Part shown: in pieces, positions 34,429 through 56,132 of the stretch | Numbering within the stretch: position 1 is the stretch's first letter | Layout of the letters: each line of letters starts with the position of its first letter | From: Escherichia coli | GTDB lineage: Bacteria > Pseudomonadota > Gammaproteobacteria > Enterobacterales > Enterobacteriaceae | Assembly: GCF_041248615.1 (NCBI RefSeq) | Contig: NZ_CP158426.1 | Length of the DNA stretch: 64,000 bases | Strand: one strand, 5' to 3' | The notes under the pieces: generated by a model | Told to the model about the DNA's origin: nothing | Seen by the model: only the letters and a program-made list of their open reading frames with translations | Databases searched by the model: none | Program-made: the position numbers and the translations under genes

Positions 34429-34594
34429 TTCCGCGCTGCATAAATAATTCAGAGCTCTATTTCTAACGCCCTTACAGCACAGCTTCCAAATGTATTACCC
34501 AAACCGCCAGTATATGTCCTGCGGCTTGCGCGCATTTCTCGATTATGTAAAAACGGGTCAGATCTGCCAGAGTCAGCGTCACCGGCCACAATAA

Positions 34595-39851: not shown

Positions 39852-42296
39852 TTACACCTTTTCAACCTGAACAAGGTTTGTATGTGACGGATTCCCCTTA
39901 GCGAGAGGAGACGGACGTTGAGTGGTCAGTACGTTGATACAACCGCCCTTATCGACACGTTTTGCATCCGGGTCATACCAGGCACCTTCACCCAGTGCGA
40001 CCACACCCGGCATCATTCGTGGCGTCACTTTCGCCTCAATATGAACCTCACCACGATCGTTAAAGATCCTGACTTTATCGCCGTTGTTGATACCGCGTTT
40101 TTGTGCATCAAGCGGGTTGATCCACATTTCCTGACGGCAAGCTGCTTTCAGCACATCAACGTTGCCGTAAGTTGAGTGAACGCGAGATTTGTAGTGGAAG
40201 CCAGTAAGCTGCAGCGGATATTGTTTGTTCAGCGGATCCTGATAACTTTCAAAGCCCGGCGTATAGATCGGCAGTGGATCGATCACATCGCCTTCTGGCA
40301 ATTCCCAGGTCGCGGCAATGTCAGCCAGCGCCTGCGAATAAATCTCAATTTTACCCGATGGCGTGGTCAGTGGATTTGCCTGAGGATCTTCACGGAAAGC
40401 TTTATAAGCAACGTGGTGCCCTTGTGGGTCGCGCTTTTTAAAGATCCCCTGCTTGCGGAACTCTTCAAACGTTGGCAGTTCAGGAATCGCTTCCCGCGAC
40501 TGGGCATACAGATGCCGCATCCACTCTTCCTGTGTACGGCCTTCAGTAAACTGTTGCTCAACGCCAAGACGTTTTGCCAGTTCGCTGGTCATTTCATAGA
40601 TGGTCTTACATTCAAAGCGCGGTTTAATCACCTGATCGTTGAAAATCACGTAAGACATATTCCCGCAGGATGCATCCAGTGCAAAGTCCATCTGTTCGGA
40701 AGCGGTGCAGTCAGGCAGCAGGATGTCAGCATATTTCGCTGATGAGGTCATGTGGCAGTCGATAACCACAATCAGCTCGCACTTCTTATCATCCTGAAGG
40801 ATTTCATGGGTACGGTTGATTTCAGAATGCTGGTTAATCAGGCAGTTACCGGCATAGTTCCAGATCATTTTGATCGGCACATCCAGCTTATCTTTCCCGC
40901 GCACACCATCACGCAGCGCTGTCATTTCCGGGCCACGTTCAATGGCATCGGTCCACATAAACATCGAAATGCTGGTCTGGATCGGGTTTTCGAGGGTCGG
41001 CATACGGACAAACGGTAAGCTGTATGAACCTTCACGCGCGCCGCTGTTCCCCCCGTTAATACCAACGTTACCGGTCAGAATCGCCAGCATCGAGATAGCA
41101 CGGGTTGCGATTTCACCGTTAGCGTGACGCTGCGGGCCCCATCCCTGGCTGATAAACGCCGGTTTGGTACTGCCGATTTCACGAGCCAGTTTGATGATTT
41201 TGTCTGCCGGAACACCGGTGATTTGCGAGGCCCATTCCGGCGTTTTAGCCACGCCATCTGGCCCTTCACCCAGAATATAAGCTTTATAGTGACCATTTTT
41301 CGGCGCACTGGCTGGCAGTGTTTTCTCGTCGTAGCCAACGCAATATTTATCGAGGAATGCCTGATCCACCAGGTTTTCGGTGATCATGACATACGCCAGA
41401 CCGTTAACCAGTGCGGCATCTGTTCCCGGACGAATGGGGATCCACTCATCTTCGCGCCCGGCTCCGGTGTCGGTATAGCGCGGATCGATGATGATCATGC
41501 GAGCATTAGATTTCTGACGCGCCTGTTCAAGATAGTAAGTCACCCCACCGCCACTCATTCGCGTTTCGCCAGGGTTATTACCAAACAGCACTACCAGTTT
41601 ACTGTTTTCGATATCCGACGGGCTGTTACCATCTGCCCAGCCGCCGTAGGTATAGTTCAAACCTTCCGCAATTTGCGCGGAAGAGTAGTCACCGTAATGG
41701 TTCAGATAACCGCCGCAGCAGTTCATCAGGCGAGCGACCAGGGTATTTCCCGGCGGCCAGGAGCGGGTCATGGTGCCGCCCAGCGTACCGGTGCCATAGT
41801 TCAGATAGATAGACTCGTTGCCGTACTCTTTGATCAGGCGCTGCATATTGGTCGCGATGATGTCGTAGGCTTCTTCCCAGCTAATGCGCTCGAATTTGCC
41901 TTCACCGCGCGCCCCGACTCGTTTCATCGGATATTTCAGGCGGTCCGGATTGTAGACACGGCGACGCATGGAACGCCCACGCAGACAGGCGCGCACCTGG
42001 TGCAGGCCGTCATAGTTGTCATCGCCGGTATTATCCGTTTCAACATATTTAATTTCACCGTCCACAACGTGCATACGTAGCGGGCAGCGACTACCACAGT
42101 TAACTGTACAGGCGCTCCAGATAACCTTTTCGTCTGATTTTGTTGGAATGGCGCTATCGACAGCGTGCGCAATCCGACTAAAAGGTAATGTTAATGCGCT
42201 GCTGGCCATTGCCAGGCCGCCGATCGCTGTCGTTTTTACCAAACCACGGCGACTCACCTCAGCAGCCAATACCGCATCAGGGATTTTCGTTTTCAT
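39852..42296 (-). CDS. dmsA: DMSO reductase molybdopterin catalytic subunit with Tat signal
   Basis: 814 aa ORF with twin-arginine leader SRRGLVKTTAIGGLAMASSALTLPFS; dmsABC arrangement. Confidence 0.92.
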   Translation of the reverse strand: MKTKIPDAVLAAEVSRRGLVKTTAIGGLAMASSALTLPFSRIAHAVDSAIPTKSDEKVIWSACTVNCGSRCPLRMHVVDGEIKYVETDNTGDDNYDGLHQVRACLRGRSMRRRVYNPDRLKYPMKRVGARGEGKFERISWEEAYDIIATNMQRLIKEYGNESIYLNYGTGTLGGTMTRSWPPGNTLVARLMNCCGGYLNHYGDYSSAQIAEGLNYTYGGWADGNSPSDIENSKLVVLFGNNPGETRMSGGGVTYYLEQARQKSNARMIIIDPRYTDTGAGREDEWIPIRPGTDAALVNGLAYVMITENLVDQAFLDKYCVGYDEKTLPASAPKNGHYKAYILGEGPDGVAKTPEWASQITGVPADKIIKLAREIGSTKPAFISQGWGPQRHANGEIATRAISMLAILTGNVGINGGNSGAREGSYSLPFVRMPTLENPIQTSISMFMWTDAIERGPEMTALRDGVRGKDKLDVPIKMIWNYAGNCLINQHSEINRTHEILQDDKKCELIVVIDCHMTSSAKYADILLPDCTASEQMDFALDASCGNMSYVIFNDQVIKPRFECKTIYEMTSELAKRLGVEQQFTEGRTQEEWMRHLYAQSREAIPELPTFEEFRKQGIFKKRDPQGHHVAYKAFREDPQANPLTTPSGKIEIYSQALADIAATWELPEGDVIDPLPIYTPGFESYQDPLNKQYPLQLTGFHYKSRVHSTYGNVDVLKAACRQEMWINPLDAQKRGINNGDKVRIFNDRGEVHIEAKVTPRMMPGVVALGEGAWYDPDAKRVDKGGCINVLTTQRPSPLAKGNPSHTNLVQVEKV

Positions 42297-42466
42297 AATG
42301 GCTCACTCAAGCTTGCTCACGATTGATTCCAGTAACAAACCGTATTGTGTAATTATTTCTATAGCAGTTCGCTATATAGGCTTGTATACATCGAATAATT
42401 TGAAAATCAAAGAGATAGGTAGATTTTCACTCGAAAGTAGTATTACGTGTAAGTGAGGAGTAATTA

Positions 42467-42480
42467 TTGTTCGGTATCAA
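42467..42480. promoter_or_regulatory. candidate FNR-box-like dyad upstream of dmsA
   Basis: TTGTTcggtATCAA matches TTGAT-N4-ATCAA with one mismatch; position relative to the true dmsA transcription start not verified. Confidence 0.3.
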
Positions 42481-42592
42481 AGGGAGACAAAAAAAGCGCC
42501 CGCAGGAGATTTAACGGTACTTACTCCTCTTGCTGATTTCCTTATTTTTCAATAAGTAAACAAAAACAAGGGGAGCAAATTATCACAAATAA

Positions 42593-43597
42593 TTACTGGT
42601 CGATGGACAGTTTATGGACACTTTCAGCCAGCGGATTAAAGCTGATCGCATCCTGTAAAAAGTCCGGTGAAAAATGCGCATACGTCATCGTTTGCTGAAT
42701 CGTGGCGTGACCCAGGATCCTCTGCAACGTGACGATGTTCCCGCCGTTCATCATGAAATGCGTGGCGAACGTGTGCCGCATGACATGCGTGGCCTGCCCT
42801 TTGGGTAAGTCGGGCTTCACCTCCTGAAGGATCTCCCTGAAACTGAGATAATCAACCTGATATAACAGGCCGGTCCGGCGGGTTTTAATTAACGGCACAA
42901 CGGAATCAGCTACAGGAACCGAGCGCGATTTCCCGTTCTTTGTGTTAAAGAACGTCACCCTGTTACCCACGATGTGTTCCCCGCGAAGCGTTGACGCCTC
43001 TTTCCATCTGGCCCCGGTCGAAAGGCACAGAATGGCAATGCGTCGTGCATCACCCTCAAGCCGTTTCAGAAGGCGATCAATCTCGTCATCTGAAAGAAAG
43101 GCCATTTCTGTATTCTGAACCTTGAGTTTACGTATTCCGCGCACAGGGTTTTCGTTATGATAAACCTCCGCGTCAATTAACAACGAAAACATCGCAGATA
43201 AGGCGCACAGGTCGCGATTGATACTGGACGGCATCAGTCCCGCCTGCAACTTATCCGAGCGATACTCAATCACGAATTTTCGTGTCATCTGGCTGGCGCG
43301 CGGGTCCCCCATTTCACGTATCACCTTCTCCAGTCTGGTTCTGTAGGTATCACCATATGCCTGATTACGACCATCAAGCATCCACCACACCTCAATCAGT
43401 TCTGATAACCGCCGTTGATCGGCGGGCCTTGCCTGCCACGGGTTATTGTGGAAATTCTGAAGAACGTATCTTTCGAATTCCTGCGCCTTTGATTTCAGGG
43501 TGAAAATCTTACGAATCCGCCTTCCTCCCGCCCCCTGAGGCCTTACATCAACCTGATAACGTCCGTCTTTGAGTTGCTTAATCGACATGATCAGCAC
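42593..43597 (-). CDS. int: tyrosine-type phage integrase (P2 Int-like)
   Basis: 334 aa ORF; C-terminal HxxR...Y catalytic motifs (VMRHTFATHF, LGHATIQQTMTYAHF); N-terminus IKQLKDGRYQVDVRP resembles P2 Int; adjacent to host junction. Confidence 0.85.
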   Translation of the reverse strand: MLIMSIKQLKDGRYQVDVRPQGAGGRRIRKIFTLKSKAQEFERYVLQNFHNNPWQARPADQRRLSELIEVWWMLDGRNQAYGDTYRTRLEKVIREMGDPRASQMTRKFVIEYRSDKLQAGLMPSSINRDLCALSAMFSLLIDAEVYHNENPVRGIRKLKVQNTEMAFLSDDEIDRLLKRLEGDARRIAILCLSTGARWKEASTLRGEHIVGNRVTFFNTKNGKSRSVPVADSVVPLIKTRRTGLLYQVDYLSFREILQEVKPDLPKGQATHVMRHTFATHFMMNGGNIVTLQRILGHATIQQTMTYAHFSPDFLQDAISFNPLAESVHKLSIDQ

Positions 43598-43657: not shown

Positions 43658-43999
43658 TCAGCCAGCATTGCGGCCTGATTGGGGTGATTTTTGGGTATTG
43701 CGGGTTGAAACCTGATCGTCCTCCGACTGCGTGGAGCCATCAAGAGAGAGAGCCGGGGCGATCTGACCGGCAACAGGTAGCGTCTTATCTTTGATTAGCC
43801 AGAACATATATTTTTCAAACCGATCCACTTGAAGGACGGCCTCAACAATCTTTGCTCTGGCGATCTTTTGCCCTGACTCATAATTCCTGACAGTTGCCAG
43901 AGATAACCCTGTAATATCAGCAAATTGCTTTTGAGTTAGCCCTTCCGTCTTGCGTATCAAACGCAACTTTTTCGCATAGTCTATTGACAAGATACTCAT
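43658..43999 (-). CDS. phage immunity repressor, P2 C-like (HTH)
   Basis: 113 aa ORF with HTH (LTQKQFADITGLSLATVRNYESG) and C-terminal QIAPALSLDG...SPQSGRNAG resembling P2 C repressor; divergent from cox-like gene. Confidence 0.75.
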   Translation of the reverse strand: MSILSIDYAKKLRLIRKTEGLTQKQFADITGLSLATVRNYESGQKIARAKIVEAVLQVDRFEKYMFWLIKDKTLPVAGQIAPALSLDGSTQSEDDQVSTRNTQKSPQSGRNAG

Positions 44000-44102: not shown

Positions 44103-44624
44103 ATGCGGGAGATTATTGCCGACAAAGAGTTATCTGGCGCTCAACCGGTTCAGGATGATGGCGCGGACAATGAATTCATTGAAGCTGCCAACGACAACGA
44201 ACACCTGGAAACCAAAACCAGACCGTCCTACAAAAAGGGCGCAACCCTACGACTGGACGGCCCAGTCGCAGGACTTGTGTCACTGGAAAAAGGGGCTGCC
44301 TATCTGGGGGTAACAAAATCTGCGCTACGCGCCGCCATTCAGCGCGGGCAGATGCCGGGTCACAAAACGCGCTCAAATCCCGAAGATGAAAAGTCAGACG
44401 GTACATGGTGGTTTAACGCCAAAGCCTGGGACGAACTAGCCGACGAACTACTGGAGTGCGAACCGCCAGAGTGGCACAACTGGAAAAGCTACTGGACGTA
44501 CGACCGCAAGAAAAGAAAGTTTTCACCGGCAAACAAGGAGGACTGCCAGACCGTTAAAGGTAAGCAGGTTTACTCCCCCAGAGTTTCAAAACTGGAGCAA
44601 CTCAAAAACAACCAGCCCGGCTAA
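44103..44624 (+). CDS. cox-position early gene, HTH-containing (excisionase/regulator-like), 173 aa
   Basis: First rightward ORF after repressor, RBS gagga upstream; contains AAYLGVTKSALRAAIQRGQMPG HTH-like segment; much longer than P2 Cox. Confidence 0.5.
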   Translation: MREIIADKELSGAQPVQDDGADNEFIEAANDNEHLETKTRPSYKKGATLRLDGPVAGLVSLEKGAAYLGVTKSALRAAIQRGQMPGHKTRSNPEDEKSDGTWWFNAKAWDELADELLECEPPEWHNWKSYWTYDRKKRKFSPANKEDCQTVKGKQVYSPRVSKLEQLKNNQPG

Positions 44625-53829: not shown

Positions 53830-55371
53830 ATGCCAACAGTTCCAATTTCTATGAGAAAACTTAAAGAAATTCTTAGGCTTAAATACGGTGTTGGACTCAG
53901 CCATCGACAAATTGGTCGTAGTCTTGCAATCTCCCCTTCCGTTGTATCCAGATATGCTAATCGGGCGGCTCAACTTGGCATAAAGCAGTGGCCCTTACCT
54001 ACAGGATGGGATGATACAAAACTAAAACATGCGTTCCTTCAGACCCAGGTTAAGATGAAGAAGCACTCTCTGCCTGACTGGGCTACAGTACACCGGGAAC
54101 TGCGTAATAAATGCGTGACGCTGCAGCTACTCTGGGAAGAATACTGTGAGCGTAATCCAGGCGGTTTTTACAGCTATAACCATTACTGCCGGATGTACCG
54201 TGAATGGCTCAAAACCACTTCACCATCAATGCGTCAGGTACATAAAGCTGGCGAAAAACTTTTCGTTGATTACTGTGGACCTACCGTTGGCGTTACCGAC
54301 CCTGAGACCGGAGAAATAAGAACTGCTCAGGTCATCGTAGCTGTTCTCGGGGCATCAAGTTACACATGGGCAGAGGCCACCTGGTCTCAGCAGCTTGAAG
54401 ACTGGGTGATGAGTCATGTTCGCTGCTTCCAGTGGTTGGGTGGCGTTCCTGAACTTGTTGTTCCGGACAATCTGAAAAGCGCCACATCCAGGGCATGTAA
54501 GTATGATCCTGACGTTAACCCTACCTACCAGCAGATGCTTGAGCATTATAATGTCGCAGTTTTGCCTGCGCGGCCACGTAAACCGAAAGATAAAGCCAAA
54601 GCTGAAGTTGGCGTTCAGGTTGTTGAACGCTGGATCATGGCCCGAATCAGGCATGAGATCTTCTACAGCCTTGCATCGCTTAATCAGCGCATTCGGGAGT
54701 TGCTGGAAAGACTGAATAACAAAATAATGCAGAAGTTGGGTTATTCACGTGCAGAACTCTTCATCCAGCTTGATAAACCCGCACTGAAGCCTCTTCCTGA
54801 AGCCAGTTACAGTTACACCCTGGTGAAGAAAGTCAGAGTTCATGCCGATTACCACGTGGAAATCGACAAACATTACTACTCGGTTCCATGTTCGCTGTTA
54901 GGCCAGCAACTGGAAGCATGGATCTCCGGAGAACTGGTAAGACTCTTCAATCAGGGGCAGGAGGTTGCTGTGCACCCGCGCAAGCGTACTTATGGCTACA
55001 GTACCCGCAACGAGCACATGCCTGAAGCTCATCGACAGCATGCCACCTGGACGCCAGAGCGTCTTCTGGAATGGGCGGGGCACATAGGCAGTGAAACTCA
55101 TAGTTATGTGCTTCATATACTGAACTCTCGTCCACATCCGGAACAAAGCTATCGCTTCTGCCTTGGACTCCTGAACCTTCATAAAAAATACAGTAAAGCC
55201 AGACTTAATGCAGCATGTGCAAGAGCTCTGAAAACAAAGGTATGGCGTCTGTCAGGTATTAAATCGATCCTGGAAAAAGGTCTGGATAAACAACCTGTTC
55301 AGGATCCAAAACCAGATCTGTTATCCACGATGGAACACGAAAACGTACGCGGCAGTGAGTATTACCACTGA
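53830..55371 (+). CDS. istA: IS21-family transposase IstA
   Basis: 513 aa ORF; N-terminal HTH (LSHRQIGRSLAISPSVVSRY) and integrase-like core. Confidence 0.85.
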   Translation: MPTVPISMRKLKEILRLKYGVGLSHRQIGRSLAISPSVVSRYANRAAQLGIKQWPLPTGWDDTKLKHAFLQTQVKMKKHSLPDWATVHRELRNKCVTLQLLWEEYCERNPGGFYSYNHYCRMYREWLKTTSPSMRQVHKAGEKLFVDYCGPTVGVTDPETGEIRTAQVIVAVLGASSYTWAEATWSQQLEDWVMSHVRCFQWLGGVPELVVPDNLKSATSRACKYDPDVNPTYQQMLEHYNVAVLPARPRKPKDKAKAEVGVQVVERWIMARIRHEIFYSLASLNQRIRELLERLNNKIMQKLGYSRAELFIQLDKPALKPLPEASYSYTLVKKVRVHADYHVEIDKHYYSVPCSLLGQQLEAWISGELVRLFNQGQEVAVHPRKRTYGYSTRNEHMPEAHRQHATWTPERLLEWAGHIGSETHSYVLHILNSRPHPEQSYRFCLGLLNLHKKYSKARLNAACARALKTKVWRLSGIKSILEKGLDKQPVQDPKPDLLSTMEHENVRGSEYYH

Positions 55372-55382
55372 TACGGGATCCA

Positions 55383-56132
55383 ATGATGAATCATCTTTAC
55401 GAACAACTGACCGCACTTAAACTCACCGGCTTCCGTGATGCGCTTAAAAAGCAACTTGCTCAGCCGGGCACATACCAGGAGCTGGGCTTCGAAGAACGCC
55501 TGTCATTACTGACAGCAGAAGAACTAACCTGCCGTGAAAACAGGAAGGCAGAGCGTCTGATCAAACATGCACGGTTCAGACTTAATGCTGAGTTATCAAA
55601 GCTGGATTATCGTAACAATAGAGGGCTGGACAGGGCCCTCATCCGTTCACTCAGTCAGGGAAACTGGTTAACCCTGAAACAAAATATTTTACTGACCGGG
55701 GCCACCGGCAGCGGTAAAACGTTCCTGGCATGTGCACTTGGTCATAATGCCTGCCGACAGGGATACAAGGTCTACTATTATCGCCTTAAAGCGCTGATGG
55801 AACAGTGCTATCAGGGGCATGCTGATGGAAGATACAGCAAACTTTTGACCAGGCTGAATAATAGCGATCTGCTGCTTCTGGATGACTGGGGGCTGGAACC
55901 TCTCTCATCAGAACAGCGTAGCGACCTGCTGGAAATAGTGGATCTGATGTACCAACGAGGCTCAATCATCGTAGTGAGCCAGTTGCCGGTGGAAAACTGG
56001 TACAAAATGATCGGAGACTCCACACATGCGGATGCCATCCTAGATCGACTGGTTCATGGCAGTATCAAGATCGAACTTAAAGGAGAATCAATGCGGAAAA
56101 TACAATCTCCGTTGACCGAAGGAGATCAGTGA
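55383..56132 (+). CDS. istB: IS21-family helper ATPase IstB
   Basis: 249 aa ORF with Walker A GATGSGKT and Walker B LLLLDDWG. Confidence 0.85.
   Translation: MMNHLYEQLTALKLTGFRDALKKQLAQPGTYQELGFEERLSLLTAEELTCRENRKAERLIKHARFRLNAELSKLDYRNNRGLDRALIRSLSQGNWLTLKQNILLTGATGSGKTFLACALGHNACRQGYKVYYYRLKALMEQCYQGHADGRYSKLLTRLNNSDLLLLDDWGLEPLSSEQRSDLLEIVDLMYQRGSIIVVSQLPVENWYKMIGDSTHADAILDRLVHGSIKIELKGESMRKIQSPLTEGDQ

Follow-up and report, generated by a model that had tools for sequence, protein, structure and literature searches.

A probable attL of a P2-family prophage in the serS terminator of Escherichia coli, beside an unchanged dmsABC promoter

P2-type integrases usually integrate between genes (PMC3448106). 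Nilsson et al. (2011, PMC3448106) derived the att cores of such prophages from the prophage ends; the prophage of strain UTI89 stands in their catalogue as PhiECO5 (911187-948481), with a new immunity class assigned to it. On the UTI89 assembly, the end of PhiECO5 at 948481 falls about 207 bp upstream of dmsA. A P88-like P2-family prophage was placed "downstream of serS" in ST131 by a 2025 genome paper (PMC12632120). Our literature searches for serS together with dmsA and prophage, or for serS together with P2-like, found nothing, and searches for dmsA together with prophage and integrase returned irrelevant papers only. The dmsABC operon next to this site is activated by FNR from a site at -41.5 (Myers et al., Table 1, PMC3688515), a position for which FNR has a preference according to Bearson et al. 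(2002) as quoted in PMC11363960.

The locus described here lies in a 64,000-nucleotide stretch of E. coli DNA (the window), and its closest described relatives are PhiECO5 of UTI89 and the "P88-like" GI-3 of ST131. These share with the window the attB, located in the terminator of serS at 210 bp upstream of dmsA, the gene order int-C-cox beside dmsA, and a homologous arm between int and the core. The window differs from both in its attP core, which reads GGAGATTT instead of GGCGCTTT (two substitutions), so that its core matches attB over 15 bp where theirs matches over 20 bp, and attL does not regain the hairpin. In the arm and the 3' end of int the DNA is only 84-88% identical to that of PhiECO5 and GI-3, and the window copy carries an ISEc12 insertion. 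With the integration system of phage P2 the window has in common a tyrosine integrase (about 56% identity to P2 Int by tblastn against phage records), homologues of C and Cox with the switch laid out in the same way, an attP immediately downstream of int, an intergenic attB, and tandem arm-type repeats on both arms, which are candidates in the window. However, the core sequence and the chromosomal site are not those of P2, P2-type prophages being listed at cyaR (PMC3032704). The Cox-family protein of the window has 173 aa, and unlike in P2 no IHF consensus (WATCAANNNNTTR, with at most one mismatch) was found in 42480-42640, which includes the phage arm.

Alignment with the prophage-free serS-dmsA region of K-12 DH1 (Megablast) fixed the junction. 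Native sequence occupies 42297-42506 and is 100% identical to K-12 DH1 over these 210 bp, which are what the window retains, beside dmsA, of the 238-bp serS-dmsA intergenic region of that strain. The last matching bases are ...AAAAAAAGCGCCCGCAGG. Beyond this limit K-12 runs on as CGCTTTTTAGATTCAG... and reaches the serS stop codon after a further 28 bp, and the window runs on as AGATTTAACGG..., which is phage DNA. Phage DNA extends from 42507 onward; the arm of attL that leads from the core to the integrase gene occupies 42507-42592, with a conserved inverted repeat inside it, and 42593 is the last base of the integrase stop codon. The first-pass annotation, made from the letters of the DNA and its open reading frames, had placed the end of K-12-type synteny directly upstream of dmsA and the 3' end of int about 300 bp from the dmsA start codon, with attL and the dmsA promoter sharing one short interval. 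All of this holds: homology to K-12 DH1 stops after 42506, the interval between the two genes is 296 bp, and attL and the promoter both lie within it.

The att core is AAAAGCGCCCGCAGG at 42492-42506, a sequence of 15 bp that is identical in attL, attR and attB and occurs once within the window. It makes up half of the serS terminator hairpin. The matching repeat at the far end of the prophage, which the same annotation had proposed to look for, was read in NRZ14408 (NZ_LT599825.1), a genome 100% identical to the window over 21.5 kb of prophage. There the prophage spans about 40 kb, and a second copy of the core lies at its serS-side end, outside the window (43137-43151 of the NRZ14408 locus, L002). 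It is directly followed by native CGCTTTTTAGATTC...serS. The two prophage ends and the empty K-12 site thus carry one and the same core, and attP was reconstructed from attL and attR.

The identity limit falls in a hairpin. On the serS strand, AAAAAGCGCC-TGCG-GGCGCTTTTTTT stands 28 bp beyond the serS stop codon, at a distance of 210 bp from the dmsA ATG, and the K-12 serS strand folds as AAAAAGCGCC-UGCG-GGCGCUUUUUUU, a textbook intrinsic terminator. Because this hairpin stands 28 bp past the serS stop codon exactly where identity ends, attB is, judged by its sequence, the serS terminator hairpin. A P2-type tyrosine integrase would have recombined the phage attP with this intrinsic terminator, strand exchange presumably having taken place within the 15-bp identity. 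The host side of attL consists of everything from -74 of the dmsA promoter P1 to the dmsA ATG, unchanged, and its phage side of the 86-bp arm followed by int. We consider it likely that the interval is the attL of a prophage that belongs to the P2 family (Peduoviridae) and to the integration class of PhiECO5, with little effect on dmsABC to be expected.

The gene next to the junction is dmsA, on the minus strand at 39852-42296. It encodes a protein of 814 aa with a twin-arginine signal peptide, according to the open reading frame list and the RefSeq annotation of NRZ14408. Its native leader and P1 region is the K-12-identical segment on the minus strand at 42297-42506. Within it, the FNR dyad that the first-pass annotation had noticed is indeed present: TTGTTcggtATCAA at 42467-42480 reads TTGATaccgAACAA on the dmsA strand, a class II site at -41.5. 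The P1 start was inferred from the centre of the FNR site (42473.5) and the published -41.5, which puts it at about 42432, with a -10 hexamer TAATAC at 42440-42445 (minus strand) and a leader of about 136 nt. With the same numbering, the last native base (42506) is -74, the first phage base is -75, and the att core spans -60 to -74. The junction is separated from the FNR dyad by 26 bp. The dyad and the -10 hexamer stand at the correct spacing in a sequence identical to that of K-12.

The other regulatory elements are likewise found between the junction and dmsA. NarL heptamers of the consensus type are found at -30, -10 and +12, all in native DNA. The native leader contains a palindrome, CGCTATATA-N6-TATACATCG (42370-42393), which we take to be a putative ModE site on the strength of the ModE consensus and of McNicholas et al. 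(1998); review text on ModE and dmsA gave no coordinates for the site. It also contains GCTATAGAAATAATTACACA (42346-42365, minus strand), the sequence of an AtoC site upstream of dmsA that was ChIP-positive in K-12 (Table 5, PMC3118216). Every recognisable cis element of dmsA, namely the FNR site, the -10 hexamer, the NarL-type heptamers, the ModE-type palindrome and the AtoC site, is unchanged with respect to K-12. Compared with the class II, FNR-activated P1 of K-12, the window is therefore identical from -74 to the ATG, but upstream of -75 it has the phage arm and int in place of one half of the serS terminator and the 3' end of serS, and this variant is without the upstream terminator hairpin. 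No new promoter-like site was predicted in the phage arm.

Because all mapped or recognisable cis elements are retained, control of dmsABC by FNR, by nitrate through NarL and by molybdate through ModE should be as in non-lysogens, and the effect of the prophage on dmsABC expression is probably at most modest. The first-pass annotation had put the junction within the dmsA regulatory region. We find it in the serS terminator hairpin, at -75 of P1, with all sequence from -74 to the ATG unchanged. The opposite expectation, of an intact promoter with the junction well outside it, fits in part: the promoter is intact by sequence, but the junction abuts it and is not far away. Altered regulation of dmsABC by the integration, as the annotation had suggested, might still arise, given that only 26 bp lie between the FNR dyad and the junction and that attL of this variant has a broken form of the terminator which normally shields the dmsA promoter from transcription coming from upstream.

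The attB, attR and attL were folded. The terminator hairpin is present in K-12 attB and in attR, and is missing from attL. In NRZ14408 the attR rebuilds the hairpin, with a U-tract shortened to four U residues. At attL, the phage bases AGATTT replace the native CGCTTT (42507-42512), and these two substitutions break the stem. Eight attL versions were aligned with K-12 attB. Five of the eight, the C311, UTI89, PCN033, Z1324 and AVS0753 types, have AAAGCGCCCGCAGGCGCTTT, which is the whole hairpin; lysogens of these types keep the hairpin and T7, a complete terminator, between int and the dmsA promoter. AVS0753, which represents the commonest band of arm identity, the one that includes EC958, also carries AAAGCGCCCGCAGGCGCTTT at its attR. 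The window, G8 and O22:H8 types have GGAGATTT or GGAGGTTT, with the stem broken by two substitutions. There is therefore no terminator between int and the dmsA promoter by sequence, and no intrinsic terminator was predicted there on the minus strand of the window. Strain PCN033 has in addition an IS200C element between the core of attL and the FNR site of dmsA (equivalent to about 42490 of the window), and here the dmsA promoter is truly cut off from the native DNA upstream of it.

Since C, int and dmsA all point the same way, transcription from the lysogenic promoter could conceivably read through into the dmsA promoter in the window variant. Transcripts of C and int would cross the FNR site and P1 and enter dmsABC, and the outcome would be FNR-independent expression of dmsABC or occlusion of its promoter. 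In addition, Int bound to the core (-60 to -80) could hinder the alpha subunit of RNA polymerase. This reading draws on the common orientation of the three genes, on the minus strand without a predicted intrinsic terminator, on an attL fold that lacks the hairpin of K-12 and attR, on the contrast between the five sampled relatives that keep hairpin and T7 at attL and the window, G8 and O22:H8 types that do not, and on the position of the core at -60 to -74. It has to be set against the promoter elements, which are all intact, and against the phage arm itself, where a long conserved hairpin 3' of int may stop or process the transcripts. This second structure is an inverted repeat at 42519-42580, seen in the minus-strand fold, and the alignment fold of the eight attL variants gives it 24 pairs, two of them with compensatory changes. 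No U-tract follows it. On balance we hold it unlikely that integration alters dmsABC expression in this variant. If transcription does leak into dmsABC in the broken-terminator variant, this would give a small, testable case of a prophage allele that tunes anaerobic respiration of the host.

A stronger form of the same proposal can be worded at the level of alleles, and we give it slightly less credence still. The attP-core substitutions would abolish a bidirectional terminator, shared by serS and the candidate sRNA STnc130. Lysogeny would then couple C-int transcription to the dmsABC promoter, and antisense transcription from the dmsA leader would run into int. The terminator-loss variant is the minority one and comprises the 26 near-identical genomes described below together with the G8 and O22:H8 subtypes. 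If this were true, the phage would come as a pair of alleles that differ in how much they disturb a host operon of anaerobic respiration, and the common variant of ST131 and UTI89, which rebuilds the terminator, would be the insulated one.

STnc130 enters through a full-length match to the Rfam family RF02084 on the plus strand at 42387-42521. The family is a candidate enterobacterial sRNA, here running antisense to the promoter and leader of dmsA, and its 3' hairpin is at once the att core and the serS terminator hairpin. The match scores 125.8 bits in the window, against a gathering score of 55, with two non-canonical pairs; K-12 scores 140.1 bits and the ST131-type attL 137.4 bits. The terminal hairpin and U-tract are not intact in the window, where two pairs are non-canonical and the tail reads UUUAAC. 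It could be argued from this that the relevant target of the phage is the 3' end of an antisense sRNA gene, and that integration truncates the candidate sRNA or deprives it of its terminator. The terminal hairpin of the full-length match is the att core, the score falls from 140.1 bits in K-12 to 125.8 in the window with two pairs broken, and PMC3032704 lists P2-like prophages at two RNA genes, rybB and cyaR. However, the one literature mention found gives STnc130 as a "putative sRNA" beside dmsA (PMC3632133), the family could be a false sRNA prediction that arises from a conserved promoter and a bidirectional terminator, and the same hairpin is the serS terminator anyway. We regard this as improbable, and more so than the two proposals above. 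If STnc130 is real, the insertion would parallel those of P2-like phages at cyaR and rybB, and an att core that overlaps the terminator of a candidate sRNA would be one more P2-like insertion at the 3' end of an RNA gene. An apparent mention of STnc130 in PMC4014581 was discarded, as it refers to names of the STnc1300 type.

The best explanation remains a routine integration into the serS terminator, with little effect on dmsABC expected. An uninterrupted serS-dmsA region is found in 5077 of 5425 complete E. coli genomes. The site is occupied in about 350 of 5426 (343-355; about 6%), among them EC958 (ST131) and UTI89. The phage arm with the 3' end of int is present in 355 genomes, 26 of which match at 99% identity or more and 329 at 80-90%; EC958 and UTI89 belong to the latter group, as do other strains of O25b:H4-ST131. 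The dmsA-upstream and serS-dmsA queries also matched seven plasmid records of the E. coli collection. The suggestion that this is an unusual attB for a P2-like phage does not stand, given some 350 occupied genomes and the usual intergenic habit of P2-type integrases (PMC3448106). The integration site is already known, a common and previously catalogued P2-type site, real but ordinary. The remaining alternative, that the synteny break is a rearrangement or an assembly artefact and not the product of site-specific integration, is refuted, with next to no probability left to it, by the 15-bp direct repeat at both prophage ends, the same junction in about 350 independent complete genomes, and the integrase and arm repeats that adjoin the junction; nothing was found in its favour. 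The exact att site is hereby fixed for a prophage class of important ExPEC lineages (EC958 of ST131, UTI89), and the dmsABC promoter, shown to be left intact in sequence, can be annotated with confidence; the practical value of this is limited.

The genes next to the junction are those of a P2-type switch. The tyrosine integrase gene int lies on the minus strand at 42593-43588 with the RefSeq start (331 aa; open reading frame 42593-43597) and carries the Pfam domains PF24624 and PF00589. At the amino-acid level the protein shares 90% identity with its three nearest prophage-derived records, of which one comes from an O25b:H4-ST131 host. No isolated phage with this attP was found in the phage collection, where only three prophage-derived records matched, one of them including dmsA. 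A C-type immunity repressor with a helix-turn-helix (Pfam HTH_3; annotation) follows on the minus strand at 43658-43999, and a Cox-family protein (Pfam PF10743 Phage_Cox; annotation) is encoded on the plus strand at 44103-44624, divergent from C and int. In the RefSeq annotation of NRZ14408 the gene order is P2-like, with int-C-cox, replication endonuclease, portal, terminase, capsid and tail genes and ogr; it agrees with the P2 order int-C / cox, A, Q-P / O-N-M-L, tail genes, ogr.

Candidate arm-type Int sites were found on both sides of attP. A tandem TGGACA-N5-TGGACA lies on the plus strand at 42604-42620, inside the 3' end of int, and is the sole exact match in the window. A second exact copy lies at 43075-43091 of the NRZ14408 locus, about 45 bp from the attR core. 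The window and that locus hold no exact match other than these two arm copies, which fits the tandem repeats being candidate arm-type Int sites on both attP arms.

The prophage may be defective, because an ISEc12 (IS21 family, istA-istB) is inserted at 53830-56132, in the junction region of early and late genes, and the tape-measure gene is annotated as a pseudogene in NRZ14408 (33314-35509 of its locus, outside the window). Most of the other genomes with this prophage, about 20 in number, match it in two to three pieces with only 87-88% coverage, and most of them have no IS annotation at the place of ISEc12, GF60 (IS21 family) being an exception. Outside the window, the region from ogr to attR in NRZ14408 (39400-43140 of its locus) is built, over about 3.7 kb, of repeated modules that have diverged. 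Nine families of direct repeats, with start-to-start spacings of about 0.2 to 2.0 kb, occur there together with two open reading frames of the Hok/Gef family and many GC hairpins that have T runs behind them; an Rfam search of this ogr-attR region matched no family. The corresponding region of AVS0753 has a single Hok/Gef gene.

On the other side of dmsA the gene order is ordinary for E. coli, with aspC, mukFEB, rpsA, pflB and dmsCBA. Between pflA and ycaM there is a short fragment of a pseudogene (34484-34594), which looks like a strain-specific deletion; on the K-12 map, ycaK and ycaN stand at this place.
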